Positions 1-55,174 of a stretch of DNA of 64,000 nt are shown here, piece after piece; the stretch's first letter is position 1, and the number at the start of each line of letters is the position of its first letter. A program made the position numbers and the translations under genes. Origin of the DNA: Mustelus asterias (lineage: Eukaryota). The notes under the pieces are model-generated. The model saw nothing but the letters and a program-made list of their open reading frames with translations, was not told the origin of the DNA and did not search any database. The stretch covers positions 87,730,001 to 87,794,000 of the forward strand of contig NC_135813.1 of NCBI RefSeq assembly GCF_964213995.1, in the 5' to 3' direction.

Positions 1-1109
1 GTCTAAGAAAATAAATATTTGTCTTGGAGATGTAAAGTACACTAGATTGGTCCCTGGAATGGGAGGCTGAGTAAATTGGGACCTATACTCTCTGGAATTT
101 AGAAGAATTGAGAATTATTTCATTGAAAGTTACAAGATTATGAAGGAGCATATTAGGCTAGAAACTGAGGAGTTACTTCACCAAATTGGGTTATCTGAAA
201 CATGGGGAACACAGCTCCAGGATAAATGGTTGACCATTTAGGACTGAGATGAGAAATGTCTTCATGGAGTGTTATGAATCATTGCAGTTCTCTACCCTAG
301 AGGTTTGTGGATGCACCATCATTGAATATATTGAAGAATGAGATAGATTATTGATATCTCAGGGAATCCAAGGATATGGGGAGCAGGTACAAAAGTAGAG
401 TTGAGGCTGAAGATCAGCCGTGATTGTATTGAATGACAAGAACAAGCTTGAGGGGTAACATGGTCTAACTCTTTTCCTAGTTCTTAGATTCTCATTTTCT
501 TCTAACTTGAGGCTTGAAGCTCACTTTCAAAGAATGGTCAAAGCTTTATGTCAATGTGGATCCCAATCCTGAAATATGCCATAATTAAAATGCAAAAGAA
601 AATCCATGCTGCAACAAGTTTAATGCGTAGCGCAAATCCAACAAAGCGGTGCATCAGTATCTTTTCCTCTTGAATAGCCCATTGTTTTAGAGAAAACTCT
701 GAGCTGCTAATATCTTTAATATTTTGTTTGAGGGAGAAAATGCTTGGCGACTTTTGAGCCATTCAGTATTGTTTTAGAAAGGAGTGAATTATAACTAAAT
801 ACAAATGTTAAATTAAGTTCTCTAGAATACTGTTTTGCAATTTAATTATTGCATTTTACAAGAATAAAGTTATATTTTCCCATATGTCCCTTTTGAAGCA
901 CCTTTGATCATACTTTTACATTGAAGGCACTATATGAGCTATAGTTACCATTATATTCATATCATTTAGAGTTTGGGCTGCACCACATTTCTGGACAGGT
1001 GTACAAAAGTTCAACACATTTTGAGCAAAATGAAGTCCTTACTGCCAAAATGTGCTTAAATAGCAGGGGTCAGATCTGATCTTAGATTATTTTTCAAATA
1101 AAATTTTAC

Positions 1110-1392
1110 CTTTTTCATCCCCTACATTCATTGCCCACTCCTTCTCCCTGCAGTATTTGTCAATGTTGTCCACCACACTCTTTGCATCACCTTTCACAGC
1201 ATTTTGCAGCACAAATTCTAAAATTCTCTCCTCTTTGCTTCTTCCGGTTATGAGCTGTGTCATTTTCTCTTTCAGGACGGTGTGCCAGAAAATTGCAGCT
1301 GTGCTGTTGTTCCGAACCAGGATAGGGAACAGTAGGAGAAGGAAAAGTAGACTTGCCACAAAGATGCCAAGGATTGTGAGATAGTCCAGCAT
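1110..1392 (-). CDS. COMT: Second (duplicated) copy of COMT coding exon 1; remaining exons expected left of the window
   Basis: Same translation and splice sites as 33831-34113 at offset 32721. Confidence 0.88.
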
Positions 1393-3569
1393 CTAGAGAG
1401 GGTAAAATACACAAACTACAAATGTGCACAAAAGGAACAGGCTTGTTCCAAATTAACAATATTCATTAAATAATTATAATCTATCACCAAGTCAAGTCCA
1501 GAGATGTGTGGGTTAGATAGATTGGCAATGCTAAATTGCCCCTTAGTATCAGGGGGACTAGCTAGGGTAAATGCATGGAGTTATGGGGATCAGGCCTGGG
1601 TGGGATTGTGGTCGGTGCAGACTCGATGGGCCAAATGGCCTCCTTCTGCACTATAGGATTCTATGATCACCATGGGCGCAGTGGCTGAATTCAGTTACCC
1701 AGTCCATCCAATTGTACCATCTCCTGCCCTGATTGAAATCAACTGGCCCTGCATTCACCAGGAATTGAATGTGGATTAATATGGCTTCATCAGACACTGA
1801 AGTGGTTGAGAGGGAGCTATGAATGATCTACTTGTAGTTGGACTGTATAGTATTACAGTTCCTGCAGATGCACACACAAGAGTAGCAGTTTTCTGCCACC
1901 TATTTCGGTCCTTGTCAATGCTCGCCTGGTGACTATTAGTTTAAATAGTCAACTTGAATCTTGTATATAGAAATTAATAGAGACCAATAGGGAGAGAGAG
2001 CCAAAGGTTGCAAACTCTGGCCATGTTTCGGGAGGTTTCACCACATGATATCCCACCTCCAACAACCTTTCCCTCCCCAACAGACTTCTAACATCATTTG
2101 TTAATATTTTGATAACTAACTAAAATGAAAACTACTCTCAATTAATTAAACATCCCCAATTATTTTTCTCCTGGGTTGCCATCCCTGAAGACTAATCTTC
2201 AGTTTGTGGGCTCTTCAGGACAATTCTGGAGAGTTGGCAACCCTCAGATAACCTCAACATCTGGCCTCTGCAGCCAGATTCTGAATGAGTAAAGCAACAG
2301 ATTACGAGTCAGAAGAATGGCGTTTCTTACCTATGCTTTTTCACCTGGTGAAAAGCCAGCTTTAAGCAGTGATTTTTCTTTGCTCTGCCAACCCTCCCCA
2401 CCCCAGCAGCCGAATGATTAATTGTTCACACGTTCGCTGTAGATTGTCTATTCCTCGTTCCAGACAAATCTTTCCCCTCCCCTGCCAACATCTCCTTGTT
2501 ATGCTGCCTCTTGGATTAAACAAAGTACGTTGTGTTTTGTTTGCTCGGTGAAGGAGCTGGTGTAATGGAAACATGCTTCCCGGAACATCCTGTTGCCACG
2601 GAAACATTCTGAAATCCCACTGGCACTAATAAATAACAACACGCCCTTACGGAAATACCGAAGTGCGTTTTTGAACAGTGATCTCTCAATTGTAATTACA
2701 TTAATCCTAAAATGAGAGTACCTTTCAACGAATAATCATGTCAAAGATGTAAGGACAATCAATTAAGTTGTTCATTTATCTTTGCACCCTGAATGATGAA
2801 AGTTAAATTCTAGACCTTAACTGTAAAACAGATTTATCACGGTAATAACAGTGGAGTATAGGATTACACTTAAATTACATTCTTCATAAAGAAAAATAAA
2901 TGTACAGTTTAAGCACCTGTACTTAATACAGGAAGTTACATTTACAGCTGGTAATTACCTTTTGTAGAAGCAGAATTGTTCAGTCCCAGGCACCTTGTTG
3001 AAAACTAGCTGGTTTATTAAAGATCATATTTGGGTCGAGTTTCTGAATGCCAATCACACACGATTGCATCATTCTACATTCACTACAGCTGACATCTAGA
3101 AAGCGTTAAAAAGGTAACGTTTGACCTTTTCTACTGCATCGCCCGTGGGGGAGGGAGGAGGGAGCATTGCTTTGTTTTAGTGTCTCAGATTTATCTTTAG
3201 CCTTGCTTTATACTTCAAATTGTAATTTTATTTTTACCTTCATCCAATTCTCATCTTCTGAAGGCACTAAATTCACAGTGTGTGGTTGCAGGGAGAGTTT
3301 GACTGCTATCTTTTCCTGCAGCTGTGCACCCCACTCTCCGCCTTCGCCAGCTGGTCCATCACACTTGCCCCACATCAAACTGGCTGCACCATTGTGGCTA
3401 AACACTTCTTCTCCCCTCTTCTCTCTTTCTCCGCCCCCCCCCCCCCCCCCCCCCCCGAGAGACAACAAGGGGGGGAAATCCTAAAATTTCTCTCTCCAAC
3501 CCCTTGAAATGGTAGAAAGCTGTCCAGGAGATCACATCGACCCAGTATCACCTTTGATGAGCAAGTTAC

Positions 3570-3885
3570 CGGCATAGTGGTTAGCACTGCTGTCTCTCAG
3601 CGCCAGGGACCCAGGTTCGATTCCCGGCTCGGGTCACTGTCTGTTTGGAGGTTGCACGTTTTCCCTGTGTCTGCATGGGTTTTCTCCAGGTGCTCCGGTT
3701 TCCTCCCACAGTTCAAAGATGTGTGGAGTAGGAGCATTGGCCGTGTTAAATTGACCCTAGTGTCGGGGTTAGTGGGGTTACGGGAATAGGGCCTGGGTGG
3801 GATTGTGGTCGGTGCAGACTCGATGGGCCAAATGGCCTCTCTCTGCACTGTAGGGATTCTATGATTCTATTCTATGATTCTGTGA
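3570..3885 (+). mobile_element. HE1-type tRNA-derived SINE with CR1-type tail (copy at 36291-36606)
   Basis: A/B boxes (tggttagcactg; ggttcgattcc), central domain ggtgctccggtttcctcccacag, (attctatg)n tail. Confidence 0.85.
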
Positions 3886-4369
3886 ATTGCCAATTATTAT
3901 CTTTTCCGATCAGGGAATGGAATCTGGGGGTGACCATCCCAATTGTATCACCCACATTGTTACCATTTTGGGGGTTGAATCTGTCATCCTTTTGATCTGT
4001 GAGACTCAGCCACACTAACTTCATCGATTGAAGCATCAGAGGAACCTTTTACTGAAATCGCTGAATTTGAGGGGAGTGGTCATTCAGCCCATCGTGCTTG
4101 TGGAGGCTTTTCTATCAGTTAGTCTGGCTGCCTTTTTTTTGTAATAGCCTGACAAATATGAATACTGATACAGTTTGTATCTCGTGTTTTATGATTACTT
4201 TTATATTCAACCTTGTATTTATGATCCTTTTTCACTTGGGAGGGCTGTTCTACATAAATCATTTCAATTAAAGAAACTGCCATGACCAGTAGTTAACAAC
4301 TGTATAATGCAATACCAGAAAGATTTACTATTGATGTTTAATATATTTCAAAGGCTTGATACATAACTT

Positions 4370-4471
4370 AATATACAATGGCTCACAGTGGTTAACATCC
4401 TCGTATGGTTTGATATTATTACTAATATCAAACCATACGAGGGTGTTGACCATTGTGAGCCATCGTATATT
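4370..4471. repeat. Inverted repeat / hairpin, 49-bp arms, 4-nt loop (copy at 37091-37192)
   Basis: Arms 4370-4418 and 4423-4471 with 4 mismatches, all transitions. Confidence 0.92.
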
Positions 4472-5280
4472 GTAAAGTAATTGATGATATAAATCTGCAG
4501 GATGAGTACAAGACAGTAGTTGGATCGAGTCCAATGCTCATTACAAAATTCAATCTTCCAAAAAGCATGCGCCAGATAAAGTGGCAATAGAACCGAGAGA
4601 GGAAGGATTTTTTTTACAGTAGTGCATTCTTATGACCTGGAATGTAATGTCAAGGATAGTGAAACATAGAAGTTAGAAGCAGGAAGAGGCCATTTGGCCC
4701 TTTGAGCCTGCTCCGCCATTCATCACGATCATGGCTGATCGTCCAACTCAGCAGCCTAATCCTGCTTTCTCCCCATAACCTTTGATCCCATTCACCCCGA
4801 GTGCTATATCCAGCCGCCTCTTGAATACATTCAATGTTTTGGCTTCAACTACTTCCTGTGATAATGAATTCCACAGTGAAAACAAATTCAGTACAAAATT
4901 TGAAATGGAATTTGAGAAGTACTCGTTAAGGAAAAATTTATGGGTCCTTGGGGAAAGGGACGGTGAATGGATGCAATTGGATAGGTCTACTGAAGAGCTG
5001 GCACAAGTGCAATGGACATGAGGACCTCCTGTGTGCTATAATTCCAAGTATTGTGATTTTTAGTTAAAAAAATTACTGTGCTATATGTCCAGAAACAGCT
5101 CAACCGGAGTGTTGAACAATTCAATCAGTTTTGATGGCCTGATTTTGACTTCATAAAATTGTCTCTGGGTGGCAGTCTCCTGTACTGTTCATCATCTTAC
5201 CAGAATCCTGGGTTTTAAGATTGAACATCTCTCTCTCCCCTCACATCTCTACATCTCAGAAAATCTCCTCAAACTCAAAC

Positions 5281-6041
5281 TGGACTATTATTTAAATGGT
5301 AAAAAATTGCAGCATGCTGCTGTGCAGAGGGACCTGGATGTCCTTGTGCAAGAATCACAAGGAGTTGGTTTACAGGTGCAGCAGGTAATTAAGAAGGCAA
5401 ATGAAATTTTGTCCTTCATTGCTAGAGGGATGGAGTTTAAAAACAGCGAGATTATGTTGCAGCTGTATAAGGCACTGGTGAGGCCACATCTGGAGTACTG
5501 TATACAGTTTTGGTCTCCTTACTTGAGAAAGGATATACTGGCACTGGAGGGGGTGCAGAGGAGATTCACTAGGTTGATTCCGGAGTTGAGAGGGTTGGCT
5601 TATGAGGAGAGACTGAGTAGACTGGGGCTATACTCATTGGAATTCAGAAGAATGAGGGGAGATCTTATAGAAACATATAAGATCATGAAGGGAATAGATA
5701 AGATAGGAGCAGGGAAGTTGTTTCCACTGGCAGGTGAAACTAGAACTAGGGGGCATGGCCTCAAAATAAGGGGGAGCAGATTTAGGACTGAGTTGAGGAG
5801 GGACTTCTTCACACAAAGGGTTGTGAATCTGTGGAATTCCCTGCCCAGTGAAGCAGTTGAGGCTACCTCATTGAATGTTTTTAAGGCAAGGATAGATAAA
5901 TTTTTGAACAGTAAAGGAATTAAGGGTTATGGTGAGCGGGCGGTAAGTGGAGCTGAGTCCAAAAAGGATCAGCCATGATATTGAATGGCAGAGCAGGCTT
6001 GAGGGGTCAGATAGCCTACTGCTGCTCCTAATTATGTTCTT
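5281..6041 (+). mobile_element. CR1/HER1 LINE, 5'-truncated RT C-terminus plus 3' UTR (copy at 38002-38762)
   Basis: LYKALVRPHLEYCIQFWSP...LERRR-like...TRGH motifs, uninterrupted frame. Confidence 0.9.
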
Positions 6042-6648
6042 CAAACCATAGGTGTCACATCTTGTATGTCATAAGCTGCAACTGAACGTGACTTCATGAA
6101 ATCTGAGCATGATATCAACTTAAAGCATTTTTTCTATTGTTTTGATATAGCAAGATCTTAGCAATGACCGATGAGATGAACGATTAATTAATGTTTGTTC
6201 TACTGGTTGAGGATTGAATGTTGGCCAGGATGTATTATTTGAAGAGCAGGACTGACTTTGAGGTAGATCAGCCATGATCCAGTTAAATGGCAGAGCATAA
6301 TTGAGGGCTGAATGACCACCTCCTGCTCTTATGTTCCTGTTGTATTCCTTAAATATTGTAGTTGATTGTTGAAGACGTTGACTCCTGGATGATGATTTCA
6401 AGGATCTCATTACTCTCCATTACCATCCAGGTGACCATTTGTCTGTCAAAGTCCAAACAGTAAACTTGGCAGTCTATTCGGGAGTCGCAGCCAAGCCTGA
6501 TACATCGTCACTTGCAGTGGGTATTGATGCATAATAATCAGGAACAAAAATCCGGCTGATTCATTTTTCCCTACATCTTTTCATGGGATAATCAATTGTT
6601 CTGCCTGTATTATCATCTTGGCCAAGATCGGTCAACTCAGTAAAGTGA

Positions 6649-7012
6649 TTAATAAATAAACTTTACTTTTTACAAGTAAGGCTTACATTAACACTGCAGT
6701 GAAGTTACTGTGAAATTCCCCTAGTTGCCAGCACTCCGGCACCTGTTTGGGTCAATGCACCCTAACCAACACATCTTTCAGAATGTGGGAGGAAACCGGA
6801 AACCATGTCCCCAATGTGGGCTGGCACGGTGGCACAGTGGGTTAGCACTGCTGCTTCACAGCGCCAGGGACCCGGGTTCGACTCCTGGCTTGGGTCACTG
6901 TCCATGTGGAGTTTGCACGTTCTCCCCGTGTCTGTGTGGGTTTCCTCCGGGTGCTCCGGTTTCCTCCCACATCCTGAAAGACGTGTTGGTTAGGTGCATT
7001 GACCCGAACAGT
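6649..7012. mobile_element. Two divergent partial HE1-type SINEs (copy at 39370-39733)
   Basis: Minus-strand piece with the alternative tail at 6649-6803; plus-strand head at 6818-7012. Confidence 0.75.
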
Positions 7013-8850
7013 AGAGATCATGGGTTGAATGTGGCACCCTGCCATGTTACACACCGGATAGATTCTGAGTGTTTTTGGCAACTTGAGCATTTCCTTCAAT
7101 TGTACAAATCATATTTAATATTCAGATCCCAAAGCTATATAAATCTTTTGGCATTTGAAATGTTTTTATTGAGAAGTAAAGGATTTTTTGAGCAAATCGA
7201 TTCACAAATGTGTCACAGTTTGTTCTGTCACGGAACGTTTGGTTATTCAATATCTTTGTTTTTGTGCTATTTCCTCCTCTAGTTAGAGATGGTGTTGCAC
7301 TATAATAAACATGCATTTTCAACTTGCGACATCTCACCGTCTGGTGCATGCAGTTATTTAACAGCACCTGCAAACACTTGTATCAGAGCTTCCAAAACTG
7401 AATCGCAATGACGAGATTTTGAGGTTGTGAGCTTTGAGGGTGAATTTCGGATGGATTTCTGCTGGTTGTAATCCCTTGCTTTTTATAATGGTGGGTGCAG
7501 CTGAATGGACAGCTCTCTGAGGCCCAATTGCTGCTGCAAAAGAAGCCAGTAAAAAGGTGAAAGCAAAATACTGCAGATGCTGGAATCTGAGTCAGTAAAA
7601 AGGTAGGTTTTTTTTTGTAGAAAGCCTATTTCCTTAATAACCAGGATCATTTTACATCAATAATCAGGATCATAATGTGTTACTAATTGTGATTAAATTA
7701 CAATAATTTGAATCCTATTGTATCAGCGATAAGGATTCTATTACATAATTATAATTGCTCACTCTTACTTCATTAACAGTCAGATTACTATTACATTCAT
7801 AATCTGGTGTCCGTTCCATCAAAATCCAATTCTTATTGCATAAATAATGAGTATCCTATTTAATTAATCAGGATTCTGTTACGTTAATCAGGATCCAGTT
7901 GCATTAATTATACTTTCAATTGCACTAATAATAAACTGCAACATAATCCCTTTTTGCATTAATAATAATTATCCTGGCAGCTGTAGCCTCCCCAACCCCC
8001 CCACCCTCCCCCAGCAACACTCAGACCACCAACATTCTCATTATATGATCACACAAAGGAGTCTGACGTATTAAAATGGAATCACACCAGGAAAATGTTT
8101 GGGCAGCACTGACTTGTGTTATGATCCTTGCTCAGACCCTCAAGTTTTTGGTAAGAATCGTTTATGTACCAGTAACATCTTGTTTAAAATAGACAAAGGT
8201 TGAGATTCAAGACACATACTCAGAAGATAAAGCCACAAGACTCCCATGGGTTTTTAACAAACAAGAATAAATGTGTAAAGATGGGAAATATAAAACAATT
8301 CATAATGTCTAACTTATACTCTAACATTCAAGGTTTATGCAAAGTACATATAAGTTAACAGACAAACTGTGGTCAAATACACCACACCATAAATGGCAGA
8401 TGTGACCAAGATGAAGTCGAAGGATTTCTTAACCCACATAAATGTCAGTCACACTGAAAGTCGACCAATTTCACAAACTCTACCCCTCTCTCATGAGGGA
8501 TTCCGTCTTCACCTTCGAAGATCTAACCTCGGAATTCTCTCCACAAGTCATTCCAACTTGGAGGGCCTCAACGACATCCAACCTCACGGGGTTTGAGTCT
8601 TGTCTTCCGAGAGTTTGTTCCTCTAATTCCCAAATCTGAACTCCAGCTACAATCACAAGCACAACTTCAGGTCTTCAGCCAAGCTAAGCAGATTTCTCCA
8701 AAGGAGTATCTTCATTCCAGTGACCTGCGGCATGGCAGAACCAACCTTCTGCTGCCATCTTAGGTCTTCAGGGCTTCTCCTGAGCACTTTACGATTAAGA
8801 AGTTTAACAACACCAGGTTAAAGTCCAACAGGTTTATTTGGTAGCAAATG

Positions 8851-8887
8851 CCACTAGCTTTCGGAGCGCTGCCCCTTCGTCAGGTGG
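8851..8887 (-). ncRNA. Minimal hammerhead ribozyme motif in Penelope terminal repeat
   Basis: Minus strand: CCAC-CUGACGA-A-GGGGC-AGC-GCUCC-GAAAGCU-A-GUGG (stem I CCAC/GUGG, stem II, palindromic AGCU in place of stem III). Confidence 0.65.
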
Positions 8888-9444
8888 AATGGAGAAATGC
8901 TCACAAACAGGGCATACAGATTCACAAACTCAATTTACAGAATAATAATTGGAATGCAGTCTTTACAGATAATCAAGACTTAAAGGCACAAACAATGTGA
9001 ATGGAGGGAGCATTAAGCACAGGTTAGAGAGATGTGTATTGGAGAGATCCTCCGGAGCCTTCAACATGTCATTGATGAAGACGAACATCTCGCCAAGGCC
9101 ATCCCCACACCCCCACTTCTTGCCTTCAAACAACTGCACAACCTCAAACAGACCATTGTCCGCAGCAAAATACCCAGCCTTCAGGAGTACAGTGACCACG
9201 ACACCACACAACCCTGCCACAGCAACCTCTGCAAGACGTGCCGGATCATCGACACAGATGCCATCATCTCACGTGAGAACACCATCCACCAGGTACACGG
9301 TACATACTCTTGCAACTCGGCCAACGTTGTCTACCTGATACGCTGCAGGAAAGGATGTCCCGAAGCATGGTACATTGGGGAGACCATGCAGACGCTATGA
9401 CAATGGATGGATGAACACTGCTCGACAATCACCAGGCAAGACTG

Positions 9445-9660
9445 GTTGAAAAAGAGTGGTTGGGGTGTGGAATGGACTGCCTGCAGTGATAGTGGAGTCA
9501 GACACTTTAGGAACATTTAAGTGGTTATTGGATAGGCACATGGAGCACACCAGGATGATAGGGAGTGGGATAGCTTGATCTTGGTTTCAGATAAAGCTCG
9601 GCACAACATCGTGGGCCGAAGGGCCTGTTCTGTGCTGTACTGTTCTATGTTCTATGTTCT
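9445..9660 (+). mobile_element. CR1 3' tail inserted in Penelope (second copy at 42166-42381)
   Basis: Ends in (ttctatg)n tail; flanked by 7-bp target-site duplication aagactg (9438-9444 and 9661-9667). Confidence 0.85.
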
Positions 9661-11519
9661 AAGACTGTTCTCTTCCTGTTGGGGAGCACTTCAGCGGTCA
9701 CGGGCATTCGGCCTCTGATCTTTGCGTAAGCGTTCTCCAAGGCGGCCTTCATGACACACGACAGCGCAGAGTCGCTGAGCAGAAACTGATAGCCAAGTTC
9801 CGCACACATGAGGATGGCCTCAACCGGGATCTTGGGTTCATGTCACACTAATCCCACCAAAACAGTCAGCAAGAAATGTATTTGCAACTAGTAAATTGAG
9901 AGGATGAGGTTAAGTAGGTTTTTCTTTCCTGTTGGTTCCCAATGCAGACCCAGTCTTGCCACTATGCACTCAGAGCTCAGTCAGTAGTGGTACTATTGAA
10001 GCACTCTTGGTGATGGACATTGAATGCCCCCACCCAGTGTACATTCTGTGCCCTTGCCACCGTTGGTGCTGCTTCCATTGGGGTTCAACATGGTGGAGTA
10101 CCAATTTATCAGCTGATGGGGTGTGGTAGTTGGAAGGTTTCTATGTTCTTGGTTGATCTGATGCCATGTTGAGGACTCTCAGAACAACTCCCAACTGTAT
10201 GCCACTGTGCTACCACCACTTCTGGTGGATCTAACATGCCAGCATAGCAATAGAGGAGCCTGGGCCATTGGCTTTAAGGTATGATTCAGTGAGTATGACT
10301 TGGTCTGGCTGTTGCTTGCCTAGTCAGTGGGATGCTTTCCCAATTTTGGCACAAAACCCCAGATGTTAGTATGGAGGACTTTGCAGGGTTGACGGGGCTG
10401 GGGTGTCACTTTTGTTTCTGGTGCCTCGGTCAATATTGGGTGGTCTGTCTGGTTTCATTCCTTTCTAATTTTTTGATGGTTTGATACAACTGAGTGGCTT
10501 GCTAGACCATTTTGGGGTGCAGTTAAAAGTCAAAAGTGTTGTTGTGGGTCTGGAATCACAGCTAAATCAGACCAGGTAAAATGGCAGATTTTCTTCCCTC
10601 AAGACATTAGCAATACACTTTGGTTTTTACAATAGCCGACAATAGTTTCATGGTCACTGTTACTGGGACTGGCTATTTTAATTCCAGATTTATTAATTAA
10701 ATTCAAATTCCACCAGCTGTCACAGTGGGATTTGAGCCTGTGTCCCCAGGGCATGAGTCTGGGCTTCTGGATTAGTAGTCCAGTGACACTATGTCATCAT
10801 CTCCCCTTTAATAGAAATGATCAGAAAGTAAGATTCAATTAACCTGTGCTGAACTGTAACATTAAGGAACGACAGAAAGAACTTGTATTTAGTACCTTTC
10901 AGGACCTTAAGATTTCCCCAGTGTTTCACAGCCAATAAAGTACTTTTGAAGTGTACCCACTATTGTAATGAAAAAATATTGTAACAATTCAGTACTTTAT
11001 GATTTCAAAAAACGCTGATGACATCTTTAATAAACTTGGCCGAATAGTGCAGCTATTATTTTGAATGTGCAGAAGCACCAACTCTATCAAAATGAAATTT
11101 AATCAGAAAAGTGTTCAAATATTTTTGAGTTTACTAAACCCCGTCTGTTACAGTGATACAGACAGCCCTGTGTCTTGGATTATCTGAAATTTCTTATTTG
11201 TCCTATAATATTTGCTTTTCTCAAGATGCTGATTCTCTGTTGAGGTGAACTTAGGTGACTGGCAGGTACCCTCCAGTTGCTCAAGGAAGTGGCCTTTTGT
11301 CATGTGTACCACAGGGCAAGTCATATGCTGTCCTTTGGGAATCCAACATTGATTGCTGGATAACAATATGGAGCAGAATTTTCCCCTACCTATTCCCATG
11401 GTAAGACTTGCATTTATATAGTCTCTTCATGATAACCAGACATCTCAAAATCTTTTGAAAGGTTGTCCACTGTTATCATGTAGAAAATGGGGGAACTAAT
11501 CTGCGTCCAGCAATCTTCT

Positions 11520-12695
11520 GCAAACTGCATACTGATAATGTGGATGCAGTTTATATGGACTTTAGTAAGATGTTTGACAAGGTCCCGCATGGCAGACTGG
11601 TACAAAATTTAATATCACGTGGATTCGGGGTGGGCTGGCTAGATGGATACAGTACTGGCTTGGTCATAGAAGACAAGAGTAGCGGTGGAAGGGTGTTTTC
11701 AGAATTGAGATATGTAGCTAGTGCTATTCCATAGGGATCAGTGCTAGTACCTCTATTGTTTGTAGTATATATAAATGGAGGAACATGTGTTTGGTCTGAT
11801 TTAGTAAGTTTGTGGATGACACAAAGATGAGTGGAGTTGCTAATAGTTCCGGGGATTGTCAGAGGACACAACAGGAAATAGATTGATTGGAGACTTGGGC
11901 ACAGAAATGGCAGATGGCGTTTAATCCAGACAAATGCAAGATGATGCATTTTGGAGGATCAAATTTAGGTGTGAATTATACTGTAAATGGCAGAACCCGT
12001 GGGAACATTAACATAGAGGGATCTGGGTGTGCAGGTCCACAGTTCCCTAAAAGTGGCAACATAGGTGGCCAGGGTGATTAAGAAAGTATATGGCATGCTT
12101 GCCTTCATTGGCTGAGGCATTGAGTACAAGAGTTGGAAAATCATGTTGCGCCTATATTAAACCTTGGTTAGGCTACATTTGAAGTATTGTGTGCAGTTCT
12201 GGTCACCACACTACCAGAAGAATGTGGAAGCTTTGGAGAGAGTGCAAAGAAGGTTCACCAGGGTGTTGACTATGAGGAGAGGTTAAATAAACTCGGATTG
12301 TTTTCACTGGAAAGACGGAGGCTGAGGAGGAGACCTGATAGAGGTCTACAAAATTATGCGAGGCATAGACAGGATGGATAGTCAGGCTTTTCCAAGGGTG
12401 GAAGTGTCAATTATAAGGGGGTACAGGTTCAAGGGTGGGGGGGGGGGGGGGGGGTGCGGATGTGCAGGGGAAGTTTTTCACGCAGTAAGTAGTGGGTGCC
12501 TGGAACGCGCTACCAGAGGAGGTGGTGGAAGCAGGCACATTAGCAACATTTAAGAGGTATCTGTATGGGTACATGAATAGGGAGGGAATAGAGGGATACG
12601 GGCCAAGTAAGGGCAGAAGGTTTTTTAAGTTTAGTTGGGCTATCATGATCAACACAGGCTGGAGAGTCGAAGGGCCTTTTTTTTTGTTCTATGAC
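11520..12695 (+). mobile_element. CR1 LINE RT fragment, frameshifted
   Basis: DAVYMDFSKxFDKVPH, WQMAFNPDKCK and LGLFSLERRRLR peptides in different frames. Confidence 0.88.
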
Positions 12696-12699
12696 CACA

Positions 12700-12960
12700 T
12701 GATCAGTTTTTGAGATGATGATTGAGGGAGAAGTTGCTAGAAAATCTTTACTCTTATTCAGAATAGTGCCACGGATTGTTTTGCATCCACCCACGGAAGT
12801 AAATGGGACCTTGGTTTCATGTCTTATCTGAAGAACAGCATCTCTGACAGTGCAGCACTCATTCAGTCCAGCAGTGTCACTAGCATCACACACTCTCAGG
12901 TCAGCTAGCTCAGCACAAACTGGGAGTCAAACATGGGATGTTCCTGAAATACATGGGCCA
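12700..12960 (-). mobile_element. DeuSINE (SacSINE1/AmnSINE1-like) remnant
   Basis: catccacc...cttggttt...gtcttatctgaa...gacagtgcagcactc resembles the Deu domain. Confidence 0.6.
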
Positions 12961-31056: not shown

Positions 31057-31529
31057 ATAGTTGGTGTCAACATGCCTGCCTGAGCTAGAGCCAAGATGAC
31101 TTGGTCAACTTATAGCATCATGGAATCGTTACAGCACAAGAGGCCATTTGCAAGAGCAAATTTAACTTGTGCCATTCCTCAGCCCTTTCCCCGTAGCCCT
31201 ACAATTGTTGGCTTTTCAGCTGCTTATCCAATTCCCTTCCGAAAGCCATGATTAAATTTGCCTGCACCACCCTTTCAAACAGTGCATTCCAGATCACAAC
31301 CACTCACTGCTTAAGCATTTTTTCTCATGTTGCCTTTGATTCTGTCCTCTGGTTCTTGACCCTTCTGCCAATGGGAACAGTTTCTCTCTATCCATTCTAT
31401 CAAGATGTCTCATGATTTTGAACAATTCTACCAAATCTTCCCATAGACAAAGAACTGCAGCTTCAGTCTTTCTATATAATTTAAGCCCCTCATCCCTGAT
31501 TCTCAACTTTTTTGCACCTCCTCAGCCAC

Positions 31530-31965
31530 ATGAGGAAATATCAGACAGCTTGCGCCTGTATTCTTGAGTTTCAGAAGAAAGTGAGGTGATATGATTGAAA
31601 CATCTAAGGTTTTTTGAGGGTTAGACAGGGTAAATGTTGGGAGGATGTTTCCACTCATGGGAGAGTGTCGGACCAGAAGGCATAGTCGCATAATAAGGGG
31701 GTGCTCATTGAAGATCGATTTAAGAAAGAATTTCCTCTCAGTGGTGAATCTACGGAATTCTTTACCCCAGGAAGCTGTGGAGGCTGAGTCCTTGAATGTT
31801 TTCCAGGCTGAGATTGATAGGTTTTCCATTAAGTAGGGGAATTAAGGATTAGAGAGATAAGGCAGGAAAGTGACCTTAATGTGTGTTAGATCAATCATCT
31901 TATAAAATCGCAGAGTAGGCTTGAAGGGCTGAATGGCCTACCCCTGTTCCTATTTCTTATGGTCT
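31530..31965 (+). mobile_element. CR1 3' fragment
   Basis: FPLMGECRTRRH...VVNLRNSLPQEAVEA peptide plus CR1 tail. Confidence 0.8.
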
Positions 31966-32529
31966 TGTCTAATCTCTTCTCATTGCTATGCAGGGTTGGG
32001 GCACCATGGTATATTCTTAGTTGCAAAGGCCATGAAGCTGGCAATCCTAGTTGGGAAGGTCATTCATCTATAAAAGTAATATTCTTGATTGGGTCTGTAT
32101 TTTTCAAATGCTCCCTGCTTTGAGGAATAGGAAGGAATAGATTTTGTCCAAGGATAAGATGGGGCTTTAAAACAGAAAATGAGAAACGGTTAACCTTTTG
32201 GGTCTGGTGAAAGGTAACAGACCTGAAACGTTAATCCTCTTTTTCTCTCTCCATTGATCCTGCCAGGCCTGCTCATTATTTCTAGCATTTTCTGTTTTTT
32301 CAGATTTCCAGCATCTACAGTATTTTGCTTTTGATAAAATAGTTGTGATGAGATGATCGAAACTTCTGATTTTACTTCCTCACTTCTCTCTCGCAACTTG
32401 AGGCCTATCATCTCAAAAAAAATAGTTTCAGGATTTTGTCATCGAGGAGCTCTTTCCAAGATCATCATGCTTTTGATCTCTCCAACATATGTGAGCTCCA
32501 ACATCAAGTATTTAAAAATACTTTGTTGG

Positions 32530-33220
32530 ATTGTGAAGGGTTGATGTTCCGAGAGACTTGGGTGCACTTGTACAAGGTGCAGCAAACAATTAGGAAGACA
32601 AATGGCATGTAGGTCTTCCTCGCAAGTCAACTGCAGTACAAGAATAAGGAAGTCTCGCTACATTTGTATAGGGCTTTCGTGAGACAACACCTGAAGTACT
32701 GTGAGCAGTTTTGGTCTTTATGTCTAAGAAAATAAATATTTGTCTTGGAGATGTAAAGTACACTAGATTGGTCCCTGGAATGGGAGGCTGAGTAAATTGG
32801 GACCTATACTCTCTGGAATTTAGAAGAATTGAGAATTATTTCATTGAAAGTTACAAGATTATGAAGGAGCATATTAGGCTAGAAACTGAGGAGTTACTTC
32901 ACCAAATTGGGTTATCTGAAACATGGGGAACACAGCTCCAGGATAAATGGTTGACCATTTAGGACTGAGATGAGAAATGTCTTCATGGAGTGTTATGAAT
33001 CATTGCAGTTCTCTACCCTAGAGGTTTGTGGATGCACCATCATTGAATATATTGAAGAATGAGATAGATTATTGATATCTCAGGGAATCCAAGGATATGG
33101 GGAGCAGGTACAAAAGTAGAGTTGAGGCTGAAGATCAGCCGTGATTGTATTGAATGACAAGAACAAGCTTGAGGGGTAACATGGTCTAACTCTTTTCCTA
33201 GTTCTTAGATTCTCATTTTC
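32530..33220 (+). mobile_element. Degenerate CR1 3' fragment (its 3' part recurs at 1-500)
   Basis: Remnants of the cacctggagtactgtg...ttttggtc segment and CR1 3' UTR. Confidence 0.7.
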
Positions 33221-33830
33221 TTCTAACTTGAGGCTTGAAGCTCACTTTCAAAGAATGGTCAAAGCTTTATGTCAATGTGGATCCCAATCCTGAAATATGC
33301 CATAATTAAAATGCAAAAGAAAATCCATGCTGCAACAAGTTTAATGCGTAGCGCAAATCCAACAAAGCGGTGCATCAGTATCTTTTCCTCTTGAATAGCC
33401 CATTGTTTTAGAGAAAACTCTGAGCTGCTAATATCTTTAATATTTTGTTTGAGGGAGAAAATGCTTGGCGACTTTTGAGCCATTCAGTATTGTTTTAGAA
33501 AGGAGTGAATTATAACTAAATACAAATGTTAAATTAAGTTCTCTAGAATACTGTTTTGCAATTTAATTATTGCATTTTACAAGAATAAAGTTATATTTTC
33601 CCATATGTCCCTTTTGAAGCACCTTTGATCATACTTTTACATTGAAGGCACTATATGAGCTATAGTTACCATTATATTCATATCATTTAGAGTTTGGGCT
33701 GCACCACATTTCTGGACAGGTGTACAAAAGTTCAACACATTTTGAGCAAAATGAAGTCCTTACTGCCAAAATGTGCTTAAATAGCAGGGGTCAGATCTGA
33801 TCTTAGATTATTTTTCAAATAAAATTTTAC

Positions 33831-34113
33831 CTTTTTCATCCCCTACATTCATTGCCCACTCCTTCTCCCTGCAGTATTTGTCAATGTTGTCCACCACACT
33901 CTTTGCATCACCTTTCACAGCATTTTGCAGCACAAATTCTAAAATTCTCTCCTCTTTGCTTCTTCCGGTTATGAGCTGTGTCATTTTCTCTTTCAGGACG
34001 GTGTGCCAGAAAATTGCAGCTGTGCTGTTGTTCCGAACCAGGATAGGGAACAGTAGGAGAAGGAAAAGTAGACTTGCCACAAAGATGCCAAGGATTGTGA
34101 GATAGTCCAGCAT
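33831..34113 (-). CDS. COMT: Catechol O-methyltransferase (membrane-bound form), coding exon 1
   Basis: Translates [26 protein letters not shown] (signal anchor)...[14 protein letters not shown]...[10 protein letters not shown]. Acceptor tctctag sits directly before the ATG; donor AAAG|gtaaaa (phase 1); 283 nt. Confidence 0.96.
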
Positions 34114-37100
34114 CTAGAGAGGGTAAAATACACAAACTACAAATGTGCACAAAAGGAACAGGCTTGTTCCAAATTAACAATATTCATTAAATAATTATAA
34201 TCTATCACCAAGTCAAGTCCAGAGATGTGTGGGTTAGATAGATTGGCAATGCTAAATTGCCCCTTAGTATCAGGGGGACTAGCTAGGGTAAATGCATGGA
34301 GTTATGGGGATCAGGCCTGGGTGGGATTGTGGTCGGTGCAGACTCGATGGGCCAAATGGCCTCCTTCTGCACTATAGGATTCTATGATCACCATGGGCGC
34401 AGTGGCTGAATTCAGTTACCCAGTCCATCCAATTGTACCATCTCCTGCCCTGATTGAAATCAACTGGCCCTGCATTCACCAGGAATTGAATGTGGATTAA
34501 TATGGCTTCATCAGACACTGAAGTGGTTGAGAGGGAGCTATGAATGATCTACTTGTAGTTGGACTGTATAGTATTACAGTTCCTGCAGATGCACACACAA
34601 GAGTAGCAGTTTTCTGCCACCTATTTCGGTCCTTGTCAATGCTCGCCTGGTGACTATTAGTTTAAATAGTCAACTTGAATCTTGTATATAGAAATTAATA
34701 GAGACCAATAGGGAGAGAGAGCCAAAGGTTGCAAACTCTGGCCATGTTTCGGGAGGTTTCACCACATGATATCCCACCTCCAACAACCTTTCCCTCCCCA
34801 ACAGACTTCTAACATCATTTGTTAATATTTTGATAACTAACTAAAATGAAAACTACTCTCAATTAATTAAACATCCCCAATTATTTTTCTCCTGGGTTGC
34901 CATCCCTGAAGACTAATCTTCAGTTTGTGGGCTCTTCAGGACAATTCTGGAGAGTTGGCAACCCTCAGATAACCTCAACATCTGGCCTCTGCAGCCAGAT
35001 TCTGAATGAGTAAAGCAACAGATTACGAGTCAGAAGAATGGCGTTTCTTACCTATGCTTTTTCACCTGGTGAAAAGCCAGCTTTAAGCAGTGATTTTTCT
35101 TTGCTCTGCCAACCCTCCCCACCCCAGCAGCCGAATGATTAATTGTTCACACGTTCGCTGTAGATTGTCTATTCCTCGTTCCAGACAAATCTTTCCCCTC
35201 CCCTGCCAACATCTCCTTGTTATGCTGCCTCTTGGATTAAACAAAGTACGTTGTGTTTTGTTTGCTCGGTGAAGGAGCTGGTGTAATGGAAACATGCTTC
35301 CCGGAACATCCTGTTGCCACGGAAACATTCTGAAATCCCACTGGCACTAATAAATAACAACACGCCCTTACGGAAATACCGAAGTGCGTTTTTGAACAGT
35401 GATCTCTCAATTGTAATTACATTAATCCTAAAATGAGAGTACCTTTCAACGAATAATCATGTCAAAGATGTAAGGACAATCAATTAAGTTGTTCATTTAT
35501 CTTTGCACCCTGAATGATGAAAGTTAAATTCTAGACCTTAACTGTAAAACAGATTTATCACGGTAATAACAGTGGAGTATAGGATTACACTTAAATTACA
35601 TTCTTCATAAAGAAAAATAAATGTACAGTTTAAGCACCTGTACTTAATACAGGAAGTTACATTTACAGCTGGTAATTACCTTTTGTAGAAGCAGAATTGT
35701 TCAGTCCCAGGCACCTTGTTGAAAACTAGCTGGTTTATTAAAGATCATATTTGGGTCGAGTTTCTGAATGCCAATCACACACGATTGCATCATTCTACAT
35801 TCACTACAGCTGACATCTAGAAAGCGTTAAAAAGGTAACGTTTGACCTTTTCTACTGCATCGCCCGTGGGGGAGGGAGGAGGGAGCATTGCTTTGTTTTA
35901 GTGTCTCAGATTTATCTTTAGCCTTGCTTTATACTTCAAATTGTAATTTTATTTTTACCTTCATCCAATTCTCATCTTCTGAAGGCACTAAATTCACAGT
36001 GTGTGGTTGCAGGGAGAGTTTGACTGCTATCTTTTCCTGCAGCTGTGCACCCCACTCTCCGCCTTCGCCAGCTGGTCCATCACACTTGCCCCACATCAAA
36101 CTGGCTGCACCATTGTGGCTAAACACTTCTTCTCCCCTCTTCTCTCTTTCTCCGCCCCCCCCCCCCCCCCCCCCCCCGAGAGACAACAAGGGGGGGAAAT
36201 CCTAAAATTTCTCTCTCCAACCCCTTGAAATGGTAGAAAGCTGTCCAGGAGATCACATCGACCCAGTATCACCTTTGATGAGCAAGTTACCGGCATAGTG
36301 GTTAGCACTGCTGTCTCTCAGCGCCAGGGACCCAGGTTCGATTCCCGGCTCGGGTCACTGTCTGTTTGGAGGTTGCACGTTTTCCCTGTGTCTGCATGGG
36401 TTTTCTCCAGGTGCTCCGGTTTCCTCCCACAGTTCAAAGATGTGTGGAGTAGGAGCATTGGCCGTGTTAAATTGACCCTAGTGTCGGGGTTAGTGGGGTT
36501 ACGGGAATAGGGCCTGGGTGGGATTGTGGTCGGTGCAGACTCGATGGGCCAAATGGCCTCTCTCTGCACTGTAGGGATTCTATGATTCTATTCTATGATT
36601 CTGTGAATTGCCAATTATTATCTTTTCCGATCAGGGAATGGAATCTGGGGGTGACCATCCCAATTGTATCACCCACATTGTTACCATTTTGGGGGTTGAA
36701 TCTGTCATCCTTTTGATCTGTGAGACTCAGCCACACTAACTTCATCGATTGAAGCATCAGAGGAACCTTTTACTGAAATCGCTGAATTTGAGGGGAGTGG
36801 TCATTCAGCCCATCGTGCTTGTGGAGGCTTTTCTATCAGTTAGTCTGGCTGCCTTTTTTTTGTAATAGCCTGACAAATATGAATACTGATACAGTTTGTA
36901 TCTCGTGTTTTATGATTACTTTTATATTCAACCTTGTATTTATGATCCTTTTTCACTTGGGAGGGCTGTTCTACATAAATCATTTCAATTAAAGAAACTG
37001 CCATGACCAGTAGTTAACAACTGTATAATGCAATACCAGAAAGATTTACTATTGATGTTTAATATATTTCAAAGGCTTGATACATAACTTAATATACAAT

Positions 37101-38001
37101 GGCTCACAGTGGTTAACATCCTCGTATGGTTTGATATTATTACTAATATCAAACCATACGAGGGTGTTGACCATTGTGAGCCATCGTATATTGTAAAGTA
37201 ATTGATGATATAAATCTGCAGGATGAGTACAAGACAGTAGTTGGATCGAGTCCAATGCTCATTACAAAATTCAATCTTCCAAAAAGCATGCGCCAGATAA
37301 AGTGGCAATAGAACCGAGAGAGGAAGGATTTTTTTTACAGTAGTGCATTCTTATGACCTGGAATGTAATGTCAAGGATAGTGAAACATAGAAGTTAGAAG
37401 CAGGAAGAGGCCATTTGGCCCTTTGAGCCTGCTCCGCCATTCATCACGATCATGGCTGATCGTCCAACTCAGCAGCCTAATCCTGCTTTCTCCCCATAAC
37501 CTTTGATCCCATTCACCCCGAGTGCTATATCCAGCCGCCTCTTGAATACATTCAATGTTTTGGCTTCAACTACTTCCTGTGATAATGAATTCCACAGTGA
37601 AAACAAATTCAGTACAAAATTTGAAATGGAATTTGAGAAGTACTCGTTAAGGAAAAATTTATGGGTCCTTGGGGAAAGGGACGGTGAATGGATGCAATTG
37701 GATAGGTCTACTGAAGAGCTGGCACAAGTGCAATGGACATGAGGACCTCCTGTGTGCTATAATTCCAAGTATTGTGATTTTTAGTTAAAAAAATTACTGT
37801 GCTATATGTCCAGAAACAGCTCAACCGGAGTGTTGAACAATTCAATCAGTTTTGATGGCCTGATTTTGACTTCATAAAATTGTCTCTGGGTGGCAGTCTC
37901 CTGTACTGTTCATCATCTTACCAGAATCCTGGGTTTTAAGATTGAACATCTCTCTCTCCCCTCACATCTCTACATCTCAGAAAATCTCCTCAAACTCAAA
38001 C

Positions 38002-38762
38002 TGGACTATTATTTAAATGGTAAAAAATTGCAGCATGCTGCTGTGCAGAGGGACCTGGATGTCCTTGTGCAAGAATCACAAGGAGTTGGTTTACAGGTGC
38101 AGCAGGTAATTAAGAAGGCAAATGAAATTTTGTCCTTCATTGCTAGAGGGATGGAGTTTAAAAACAGCGAGATTATGTTGCAGCTGTATAAGGCACTGGT
38201 GAGGCCACATCTGGAGTACTGTATACAGTTTTGGTCTCCTTACTTGAGAAAGGATATACTGGCACTGGAGGGGGTGCAGAGGAGATTCACTAGGTTGATT
38301 CCGGAGTTGAGAGGGTTGGCTTATGAGGAGAGACTGAGTAGACTGGGGCTATACTCATTGGAATTCAGAAGAATGAGGGGAGATCTTATAGAAACATATA
38401 AGATCATGAAGGGAATAGATAAGATAGGAGCAGGGAAGTTGTTTCCACTGGCAGGTGAAACTAGAACTAGGGGGCATGGCCTCAAAATAAGGGGGAGCAG
38501 ATTTAGGACTGAGTTGAGGAGGGACTTCTTCACACAAAGGGTTGTGAATCTGTGGAATTCCCTGCCCAGTGAAGCAGTTGAGGCTACCTCATTGAATGTT
38601 TTTAAGGCAAGGATAGATAAATTTTTGAACAGTAAAGGAATTAAGGGTTATGGTGAGCGGGCGGTAAGTGGAGCTGAGTCCAAAAAGGATCAGCCATGAT
38701 ATTGAATGGCAGAGCAGGCTTGAGGGGTCAGATAGCCTACTGCTGCTCCTAATTATGTTCTT
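38002..38762 (+). mobile_element. CR1/HER1 LINE fragment (duplicate)
   Basis: Identical ORF at +32721. Confidence 0.9.
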
Positions 38763-41516
38763 CAAACCATAGGTGTCACATCTTGTATGTCATAAGCTGC
38801 AACTGAACGTGACTTCATGAAATCTGAGCATGATATCAACTTAAAGCATTTTTTCTATTGTTTTGATATAGCAAGATCTTAGCAATGACCGATGAGATGA
38901 ACGATTAATTAATGTTTGTTCTACTGGTTGAGGATTGAATGTTGGCCAGGATGTATTATTTGAAGAGCAGGACTGACTTTGAGGTAGATCAGCCATGATC
39001 CAGTTAAATGGCAGAGCATAATTGAGGGCTGAATGACCACCTCCTGCTCTTATGTTCCTGTTGTATTCCTTAAATATTGTAGTTGATTGTTGAAGACGTT
39101 GACTCCTGGATGATGATTTCAAGGATCTCATTACTCTCCATTACCATCCAGGTGACCATTTGTCTGTCAAAGTCCAAACAGTAAACTTGGCAGTCTATTC
39201 GGGAGTCGCAGCCAAGCCTGATACATCGTCACTTGCAGTGGGTATTGATGCATAATAATCAGGAACAAAAATCCGGCTGATTCATTTTTCCCTACATCTT
39301 TTCATGGGATAATCAATTGTTCTGCCTGTATTATCATCTTGGCCAAGATCGGTCAACTCAGTAAAGTGATTAATAAATAAACTTTACTTTTTACAAGTAA
39401 GGCTTACATTAACACTGCAGTGAAGTTACTGTGAAATTCCCCTAGTTGCCAGCACTCCGGCACCTGTTTGGGTCAATGCACCCTAACCAACACATCTTTC
39501 AGAATGTGGGAGGAAACCGGAAACCATGTCCCCAATGTGGGCTGGCACGGTGGCACAGTGGGTTAGCACTGCTGCTTCACAGCGCCAGGGACCCGGGTTC
39601 GACTCCTGGCTTGGGTCACTGTCCATGTGGAGTTTGCACGTTCTCCCCGTGTCTGTGTGGGTTTCCTCCGGGTGCTCCGGTTTCCTCCCACATCCTGAAA
39701 GACGTGTTGGTTAGGTGCATTGACCCGAACAGTAGAGATCATGGGTTGAATGTGGCACCCTGCCATGTTACACACCGGATAGATTCTGAGTGTTTTTGGC
39801 AACTTGAGCATTTCCTTCAATTGTACAAATCATATTTAATATTCAGATCCCAAAGCTATATAAATCTTTTGGCATTTGAAATGTTTTTATTGAGAAGTAA
39901 AGGATTTTTTGAGCAAATCGATTCACAAATGTGTCACAGTTTGTTCTGTCACGGAACGTTTGGTTATTCAATATCTTTGTTTTTGTGCTATTTCCTCCTC
40001 TAGTTAGAGATGGTGTTGCACTATAATAAACATGCATTTTCAACTTGCGACATCTCACCGTCTGGTGCATGCAGTTATTTAACAGCACCTGCAAACACTT
40101 GTATCAGAGCTTCCAAAACTGAATCGCAATGACGAGATTTTGAGGTTGTGAGCTTTGAGGGTGAATTTCGGATGGATTTCTGCTGGTTGTAATCCCTTGC
40201 TTTTTATAATGGTGGGTGCAGCTGAATGGACAGCTCTCTGAGGCCCAATTGCTGCTGCAAAAGAAGCCAGTAAAAAGGTGAAAGCAAAATACTGCAGATG
40301 CTGGAATCTGAGTCAGTAAAAAGGTAGGTTTTTTTTTGTAGAAAGCCTATTTCCTTAATAACCAGGATCATTTTACATCAATAATCAGGATCATAATGTG
40401 TTACTAATTGTGATTAAATTACAATAATTTGAATCCTATTGTATCAGCGATAAGGATTCTATTACATAATTATAATTGCTCACTCTTACTTCATTAACAG
40501 TCAGATTACTATTACATTCATAATCTGGTGTCCGTTCCATCAAAATCCAATTCTTATTGCATAAATAATGAGTATCCTATTTAATTAATCAGGATTCTGT
40601 TACGTTAATCAGGATCCAGTTGCATTAATTATACTTTCAATTGCACTAATAATAAACTGCAACATAATCCCTTTTTGCATTAATAATAATTATCCTGGCA
40701 GCTGTAGCCTCCCCAACCCCCCCACCCTCCCCCAGCAACACTCAGACCACCAACATTCTCATTATATGATCACACAAAGGAGTCTGACGTATTAAAATGG
40801 AATCACACCAGGAAAATGTTTGGGCAGCACTGACTTGTGTTATGATCCTTGCTCAGACCCTCAAGTTTTTGGTAAGAATCGTTTATGTACCAGTAACATC
40901 TTGTTTAAAATAGACAAAGGTTGAGATTCAAGACACATACTCAGAAGATAAAGCCACAAGACTCCCATGGGTTTTTAACAAACAAGAATAAATGTGTAAA
41001 GATGGGAAATATAAAACAATTCATAATGTCTAACTTATACTCTAACATTCAAGGTTTATGCAAAGTACATATAAGTTAACAGACAAACTGTGGTCAAATA
41101 CACCACACCATAAATGGCAGATGTGACCAAGATGAAGTCGAAGGATTTCTTAACCCACATAAATGTCAGTCACACTGAAAGTCGACCAATTTCACAAACT
41201 CTACCCCTCTCTCATGAGGGATTCCGTCTTCACCTTCGAAGATCTAACCTCGGAATTCTCTCCACAAGTCATTCCAACTTGGAGGGCCTCAACGACATCC
41301 AACCTCACGGGGTTTGAGTCTTGTCTTCCGAGAGTTTGTTCCTCTAATTCCCAAATCTGAACTCCAGCTACAATCACAAGCACAACTTCAGGTCTTCAGC
41401 CAAGCTAAGCAGATTTCTCCAAAGGAGTATCTTCATTCCAGTGACCTGCGGCATGGCAGAACCAACCTTCTGCTGCCATCTTAGGTCTTCAGGGCTTCTC
41501 CTGAGCACTTTACGAT

Positions 41517-42880
41517 TAAGAAGTTTAACAACACCAGGTTAAAGTCCAACAGGTTTATTTGGTAGCAAATGCCACTAGCTTTCGGAGCGCTGCCCCTTCG
41601 TCAGGTGGAATGGAGAAATGCTCACAAACAGGGCATACAGATTCACAAACTCAATTTACAGAATAATAATTGGAATGCAGTCTTTACAGATAATCAAGAC
41701 TTAAAGGCACAAACAATGTGAATGGAGGGAGCATTAAGCACAGGTTAGAGAGATGTGTATTGGAGAGATCCTCCGGAGCCTTCAACATGTCATTGATGAA
41801 GACGAACATCTCGCCAAGGCCATCCCCACACCCCCACTTCTTGCCTTCAAACAACTGCACAACCTCAAACAGACCATTGTCCGCAGCAAAATACCCAGCC
41901 TTCAGGAGTACAGTGACCACGACACCACACAACCCTGCCACAGCAACCTCTGCAAGACGTGCCGGATCATCGACACAGATGCCATCATCTCACGTGAGAA
42001 CACCATCCACCAGGTACACGGTACATACTCTTGCAACTCGGCCAACGTTGTCTACCTGATACGCTGCAGGAAAGGATGTCCCGAAGCATGGTACATTGGG
42101 GAGACCATGCAGACGCTATGACAATGGATGGATGAACACTGCTCGACAATCACCAGGCAAGACTGGTTGAAAAAGAGTGGTTGGGGTGTGGAATGGACTG
42201 CCTGCAGTGATAGTGGAGTCAGACACTTTAGGAACATTTAAGTGGTTATTGGATAGGCACATGGAGCACACCAGGATGATAGGGAGTGGGATAGCTTGAT
42301 CTTGGTTTCAGATAAAGCTCGGCACAACATCGTGGGCCGAAGGGCCTGTTCTGTGCTGTACTGTTCTATGTTCTATGTTCTAAGACTGTTCTCTTCCTGT
42401 TGGGGAGCACTTCAGCGGTCACGGGCATTCGGCCTCTGATCTTTGCGTAAGCGTTCTCCAAGGCGGCCTTCATGACACACGACAGCGCAGAGTCGCTGAG
42501 CAGAAACTGATAGCCAAGTTCCGCACACATGAGGATGGCCTCAACCGGGATCTTGGGTTCATGTCACACTATCTGTAACCCCCACAGCTTGTCTGGACTT
42601 GCAGAATCTCACTGGCTGTCCTGTCTGGAGACAATACACATCTCTTTAACCTGTGCTTAATGCTCCCTCCACCCACATTGTCTGTATCTTTAAGATCTGG
42701 CTGGTTGTAGGGATTCGCATTCTAATCAGTATTCAGTAAATTGATTTTGTGTCTCTGTGCCCTGTTTGAGAGTACATTTCCACTCCATCTGACAAAGGAG
42801 CAGCGCTTCAAAAGCTAATGGTATTTGCTACCAAATAAACCTGTTGGACTTTAACCTGGTGTTGTTAAAACTCTTACTGT
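41517..42880 (+). mobile_element. Penelope-like retroelement fragment (GIY-YIG endonuclease end) with inverted terminal repeats
   Basis: Peptide ...CKTC...HQVHGTYSCNSANVVYLIRCRKGCPEAWYIGET (GIY-YIG). Termini aacaacaccaggttaaagtccaacaggtttatttggtagc and its reverse complement at about 42825-42870. Confidence 0.88.
41572..41608 (-). ncRNA. Minimal hammerhead ribozyme motif (duplicate copy)
   Basis: Identical to 8851-8887. Confidence 0.65.
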
Positions 42881-55133: not shown

Positions 55134-55174
55134 GGAGTGTCTTTGGGAGCAGGTTTGATGAAATTGAAATTCCT

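Follow-up and report, generated by a model that had tools for sequence, protein, structure and literature searches.

A gap-free 32.7-kb tandem repeat containing all COMT coding exons in the assembly of the shark Mustelus asterias: recent duplication or assembly error?

In mammals the genes TXNRD2, COMT and ARVCF lie in this order, with the starts of COMT and TXNRD2 head to head. Young tandem duplications and copy-number variants (CNVs) form a class with a non-homologous joint, 0-2 nt of microhomology and a small insertion. Mammalian COMT is transcribed from two promoters, a distal one (P2) for the membrane-bound form of the enzyme (MB-COMT) and a proximal one (P1) for the soluble form (S-COMT) (passages in PMC2662804 and PMC1282571). 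For vertebrate genome assemblies, Ko et al. list a gap between the copies, low depth and discordant read pairs as marks of false duplication, and describe one true allele-specific tandem duplication inside a single contig (passages in PMC9516828). Here, a window of 64,000 nucleotides from Mustelus asterias (NCBI RefSeq assembly GCF_964213995.1, contig NC_135813.1, positions 87,730,001 to 87,794,000; G000:C13:87730001-87794000 within the wider contig) is analysed, together with its surroundings, in which a stretch of 32,720 bp containing all COMT coding exons is written twice in tandem.

The arrangement is best explained by a real, recent tandem duplication that arose by non-homologous break repair and is probably heterozygous, to which we assign a probability of about 0.52, a recent copy-number variant being slightly more likely than an assembly error. 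In line with young tandem CNVs, the copies are arranged head-to-tail and gap-free, with unrelated breakpoints, one inserted base and the whole coding region copied; unlike in these, the shark copies lack any distinguishing base, and the joint is known from the assembly alone. With homotype false duplications, in which one stretch is written twice, the locus shares adjacent copies on one scaffold and the absence of copy-specific words, whereas the lack of a gap and a sole depth hint that lies above the flank set it apart from false duplications, and the lack of allelic differences from those of the heterotype, in which two alleles are assembled in a row (PMC9516828, in part).

Extent and gene content of the repeat

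The comparison covered 204 kb, i.e., the window extended by 100 kb on its upstream and 40 kb on its downstream side (positions are those of the window, negative ones lying to its left). Positions -22869..9850 (G000:C13:87707131-87739850; copy A) and 9852..42571 (copy B) are identical over 32,720 bp (100.000%, 0 mismatches, 0 gaps) and stand back to back, with copy A reaching 22.9 kb left of the window start. The first-pass annotation had matched 1-9850 to 32722-42571 by eye, which holds with 0 mismatches, the first mismatch falling at the offset position 9851; extending the alignment to the preceding 23 kb, as it had proposed, completes the repeat at 32,720 bp with no difference. Of the unit that it had given as 9851-42571, the end is retained while the start moves to 9852, as 9851 is one extra A. 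Homopolymers of G18, G18, C14 and C23 lie within the repeat and are the same in both copies. The runner-up repeats in the 204 kb measure about 1.5 kb at 76-95%; an exact repeat of 32,720 bp is far above chance and unlike this local background. The sole run of N in the 204 kb (53109-53279) lies outside the repeat, none being found at the joint or inside the repeat, and the absence of an assembly gap between the copies is what is expected of a true duplication (PMC9516828, in part).

As had been claimed, the unit carries the full COMT coding sequence: each copy has four intact coding exons encoding the same 262-aa protein, and the sequence preceding the window, which might have lacked the remaining exons, holds the other three of copy A. 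The coding sequence of 789 nt in four GT-AG exons translates exactly, in both copies, to the best protein match P0001, a 262-aa COMT-like protein with the source label smooth-hound shark, followed by other sharks with 79-88% identity across the first exon. The encoded protein matches Pfam Methyltransf_3 (E 1.5e-21) and, across residues 50-262, solved mammalian COMT chains at about 1e-90, and is 66-92% identical to seven other vertebrate COMTs. Judged by Pfam, solved structures, exon layout and neighbours, the predicted protein is thus a standard vertebrate COMT orthologue. The locus resembles that of mammals in the identity and orientation of its neighbours, the four coding exons, the N-terminal hydrophobic segment and an ATG at the exon start; unlike in mammals, the methionine of the soluble form is absent in sharks, the shark methionine lying five codons earlier.

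Besides the COMT coding exons, the unit contains the likely 3' untranslated region and 8.4 kb before the ATG, but no coding exon of a neighbouring gene. Both of the two genome candidates for the first COMT coding exon are at this locus, and the genome search revealed no unplaced third copy of the COMT coding exons. The two consecutive accessions of P0001 are no evidence of two gene models, since a shark relative with a single cluster has four.

The joint, contig depth and the possibility of an assembly error

The outer left flank ends in ...GGTCAT and the outer right flank starts with TCTGTAAC, the extra A at the inner joint coming from neither; as TC (2 nt) is common to the unit start and the right flank, insertion of an A before TC is an alternative reading of the joint. 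The joint occurs once in the assembly (among the best 40 of 141 candidates). An old repeat is cut by the left edge, and further copies of this repeat can be aligned through the edge at about 71%. The right edge cuts a retroelement with a YIGET word that we take to be Penelope-like and that is very abundant (48,408 first-look candidates). A 96% relative of this element has an 868-aa frame matching Pfam RVT_1 (E 2e-8), and both direct and inverted terminal pieces are present; searches for a Pfam GIY-YIG match and for an Rfam hammerhead at E <= 0.1 found neither. Nested in the element at 42174-42379 (and 9453-9658) is an insert of about 200 bp with a short-repeat tail, presumably the 3' end of a long interspersed element (LINE), which is 99% like a copy 124 kb upstream and is skipped by many public contigs.

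Public contigs run from 9850 into right-flank sequence. Because both breakpoint repeats, which are unrelated to each other, run unbroken across the outer edges, these edges are ancestral and the inner joint is new, so that the single copy is the ancestral state. Unequal (non-allelic) homologous crossover is excluded, as the edges lie in unrelated repeats with at most TC in common; if the joint exists in the animal, edges without homology would fit end-joining or a template switch. Through such an event the Penelope-like element would have become linked, at 42571, to sequence lying 32.7 kb before it, with one A gained next to the 2-nt TC match, probably on one chromosome only. The alternative that the assembler mistook a polymorphic insertion of the retroelement at the unit start for a loop was set aside, since the element would then be truncated on its 3' side and only a short part is shared.

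Two alleles assembled in a row are a very unlikely source of the repeat: at assumed heterozygosities of 0.0002 to 0.003, between 6.5 and 98 allelic differences would be expected in place of the 0 observed in 32,720 bp, and even at 0.0002 the probability of no difference is 0.0014. Because alleles in a row would differ, the choice left is between a young true duplication and an identical false one. Both options had rightly been named by the first-pass annotation, although they are not firmly separated.

All 23 public sequencing runs listed are available as cleaned contigs, and four of them (X1-X4) were examined over 9400-10300, X1 and X2 deriving from the same sample, S1, with unspecified library type. 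In S1 the contig at the unit edge, most of which lies outside the unit, has a depth of 19.4 (X1) and 27.3 (X2), and a contig inside the unit one of 29.2 and 39.9, respectively. The raw ratios are 1.51 and 1.46, where 1.0 is expected without duplication, 1.31 with three copies and 1.56 with four. With a rough outside baseline, for which the pieces of other repeat copies with the lowest depth were used (three of the six listed for X1, two of six for X2), the three-copy model, i.e., a heterozygous duplication, predicts 21.2/27.8 (X1) and 27.9/36.7 (X2) for edge and in-unit contig and is the nearest of the three. None of the best 40 of 2337 candidate copies elsewhere in the genome is more than 88% similar to the in-unit stretch, whose depth is therefore unlikely to be much inflated by shared words. 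As a possible cause of the depth step, base composition and restriction sites were compared, with a G + C content of 0.47 vs 0.49 and 3 vs 4 GATC/GANTC sites.

Several observations weigh against a real duplication. The depth hint comes from one contig pair in one sample, contig depth is not a copy number, and the baseline pieces were chosen manually. No excess is seen in samples S2 and S3, at low depth, with 3.3-8.6 for the in-unit contig vs 10.3-11.6 for the lowest other pieces. In all three runs with cover (X1, X2 and X3) the edge contig continues unbroken to the left past the unit start, for 378, 385 and 45 letters that are not joint sequence and whose lengths appear to match the outer left flank. 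A real joint should break the contig at 9852 unless graph cleaning had removed the branch, and short low-depth contigs did survive in the neighbouring repeat. No contig across 9851 was found among those listed for the four runs, the bin 9865-9895 holding only the edge contig in X1-X3 and being empty in X4; as cleaned contigs drop rare variants, this absence carries no weight.

A homotype error, by which one 32.7-kb stretch was written twice in an animal with one COMT per chromosome, is a serious possibility, if not the one we favour. It might have come about if a graph loop, created by as little as one chimeric or somatic read or by a small number of them, was unrolled, or if two overlapping contigs were joined and the gap closed with one base. 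It would account for the unbroken edge contig and for the absolute identity over 32,720 bp, as identity through G18 and C23 is expected if the assembler wrote one stretch twice. It would also agree with the abundance of the repeat on one side of the joint, and same-scaffold false duplications, some with unsupported joining sequence, are known in long-read vertebrate assemblies (PMC9516828, in part). However, there is no gap, both S1 runs show a depth about 1.5 times higher for the in-unit contig, and homotype errors form a small share of false duplications, 0.4-0.9 Mb per assembly (same source). Moreover, a random chimera joining points 32.7 kb apart in tandem would be improbable in 3.7 Gb. 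The unbroken edge contig, in turn, may reflect the cleaning of Logan contigs with SPAdes-like heuristics (PMC12424806, in part), which could drop a short edge beside a very deep repeat. A literature search for identical tandem copies made by an assembler found nothing relevant.

A duplication that is real, but homozygous or common, and old yet identical owing to slow mutation in sharks, with two working COMT copies, is improbable. The arithmetic of the two contigs alone, giving unit/flank ratios of 1.89 and 1.78, would favour it. Zero differences would permit up to about 65,000 generations at the 7e-10 per base per generation of another shark, the epaulette shark (PMC10587355, in part), or about 4,600 at 1e-8. 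However, with the outside baseline the depths expected for four copies are too high (37.1 and 48.9 vs 29.2 and 39.9 observed), S2 and S3 lack an excess, and long homopolymers would be expected to drift before single bases. The claim of a very recent duplication has accordingly to be softened: the identity fits, but the age limit is wide and an assembler can also equalise copies, so that identity by itself is no proof of de novo origin.

Transcription start of the two copies

The first-pass annotation had placed two gene bodies behind one promoter shared with TXNRD2. The two bodies stand in the assembly, whereas the single promoter is one option only, as candidates for an internal start lie within the unit. 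The COMT ATG (copy B) stands immediately after a pyrimidine tract and AG, and because it follows a splice acceptor, an upstream non-coding exon must exist. A G + C- and CpG-rich patch marks the TXNRD2-like start (55000-55500). A scan for donors with an approximate matrix made for this analysis found no strong minus-strand donor just beyond this start, the best scores within 0.8 kb being 5.6 and 5.7. Four strong minus-strand donors were found in the 8.4 kb inside the unit and eight in the 9.7 kb outside, a chance-like density; with strong sites inside and outside alike, the scan cannot place the 5' exon. A minisatellite with units of about 20-40 bp (54840-55133) lies directly upstream of the TXNRD2-like start, where the first exon of a head-to-head COMT would have to lie.

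Within the unit, the candidate interval 35000-35500, whose promoter-like features are weak and were noticed post hoc, shows mild CpG retention and has an X-box-like word at 35326 and a GAS-like word at 35306, 20 bases apart, with 22 and 8 such words, respectively, in 171 kb. The strong donor TAG/GTAAGA at 35052 lies 940 bases before the COMT acceptor; sites as strong as this often occur by chance. In the protein, the hydrophobic segment is succeeded by Met44, which is conserved in all six cartilaginous fishes but in neither of the two reptiles compared (8 of 89 matches aligned); an annotated 219-aa form of a sawshark starts at its equivalent. Because the soluble form has a promoter of its own, P1, in mammals, the copy farther from TXNRD2 (A) need not be promoterless. 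A literature search for a promoter shared by COMT and TXNRD2 found none, the only 'bidirectional promoter' passage in the accessible part of one review concerning TRMT2A/RANBP1.

If the duplication is real, the near copy (B) would retain the usual promoter and non-coding exon upstream of it and encode membrane-bound COMT. With only 8.4 kb before its ATG, the far copy (A) would either be silent or be expressed from a start within the unit, under a P1-like promoter. The predicted effect would be none or a modest gain in dosage. It is conceivable, but quite unlikely, that in a new duplicate, segregating in a living shark population and deprived of the distal but not of an internal promoter, the far copy makes only the soluble enzyme from Met44 and the near copy the membrane-bound form. 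Such a reading requires a real joint, an expressed far copy and a start past the ATG of the membrane-bound form. If true, a far copy starting at Met44 would be the first step by which two isoforms of a single gene come to be encoded by separate genes, of which the multiple anchor-less COMT-like proteins of about 214 aa in several frogs may represent the end state.

Neighbouring genes, COMT relatives and implications

The coordinates of the features are compiled in Table 1.

Table 1. Features of the COMT locus in window coordinates (negative positions lie left of the window)
Feature	Position	Strand	Remarks
Copy A, right-hand 9,850 bp	1..9850	+	whole copy A = -22869..9850
Copy B, 32,720 bp, same as copy A	9852..42571	+	
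Extra A at inner joint	9851	+	matches neither outer flank
COMT first coding exon, copy A	1110..1392	-	
COMT other coding exons, copy A	-3790..-3983, -6293..-6424, -14483..-14662	-	
COMT first coding exon, copy B	33831..34113	-	hydrophobic N-terminus; Met44 at 33984
COMT coding exon 2, copy B	28738..28931	-	
COMT coding exon 3, copy B	26297..26428	-	
COMT coding exon 4 (includes the stop codon), copy B	18059..18238	-	
Likely 3' untranslated region and putative poly(A) sites, repeat-poor, after the stop	12641..18058	-	AATAAA at 14241, 13574, 13079; within unit
Candidate internal promoter / non-coding exon	35000..35500 (also copy A equivalent)	-	CpG observed/expected 0.55-0.77; weak, post hoc
Truncated Penelope-like retroelement, inverted terminal piece	41517..42881	+	right breakpoint 42571/42572 cuts through; copy A version ends 9850
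TXNRD2-like first coding exon	55233..55338	+	Arg-rich targeting-like peptide, GC/CpG-rich; 12.7 kb outside unit
Thioredoxin-reductase second exon (YDLLVIGGGSGG)	55973..56038	+	

In agreement with the earlier placement of TXNRD2 near 55 kb, outside the unit, a thioredoxin-reductase gene starts on the plus strand at 55233, its CVNVGC exon lying at about window position 67,400. It is head to head with COMT, and a p120-type catenin gene is tail to tail with COMT. The latter, ARVCF-like, is on the plus strand, and its coding exons end about 12.5 kb left of copy A and are therefore not duplicated. The protein match does not tell TXNRD1 from TXNRD2 (85.6 vs 85.4 bits), and the names TXNRD2 and ARVCF are our assumption from synteny and motifs; the order agrees with the mammalian order of TXNRD2, COMT and ARVCF.

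Between the unit and the TXNRD2-like start, a long C-rich low-complexity array (52321-53108) is followed by the run of 171 N (53109-53279), and in the thioredoxin-reductase region, beyond the right end of the window, there is an inverted pair of 1.5 kb at 95% (71630-73125 and 86133-87626), probably two LINE copies. An armadillo match on the unplaced contig C4175 was considered as a haplotig and rejected, the comparison of the first 10 of its 20.6 kb with C13:87600001-87610000 giving only one match of 300 bp at 73%.

Elsewhere in the genome, another COMT-type gene, which shares the four-exon layout and is 42-59% identical to P0001, lies on an unplaced contig (G000:C1966:15799-37015, minus strand), and remoter relatives with merged last exons are found at C10:123857736-123864036 and C16:12010672-12013073. 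Several frogs have multiple clusters of COMT-like proteins of 212-217 aa (P0054, P0059, P0061, P0064, P0075 and others), apparently too short for a membrane anchor; four such clusters from Pyxicephalus are on contigs of equal size, hinting at local expansion.

In the titles and abstract openings searched, which include few subscription papers, no duplication of COMT is reported for a shark. Human 22q11.2 gains, as far as the accessible sources describe them, span many genes, whereas the shark unit holds the coding exons of COMT only. Tandem duplications of single genes and false duplications are both familiar kinds, and the event is thus an ordinary one either way. If it is false, it would be a gap-free, curation-proof false gene gain that inflates COMT counts in comparative work. 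If it is real, it would constitute a single-gene dosage variant of the main enzyme clearing catecholamines and catechol-estrogens in a slowly mutating vertebrate, and would offer a natural test of day-one expression in a copy severed from its upstream promoter.

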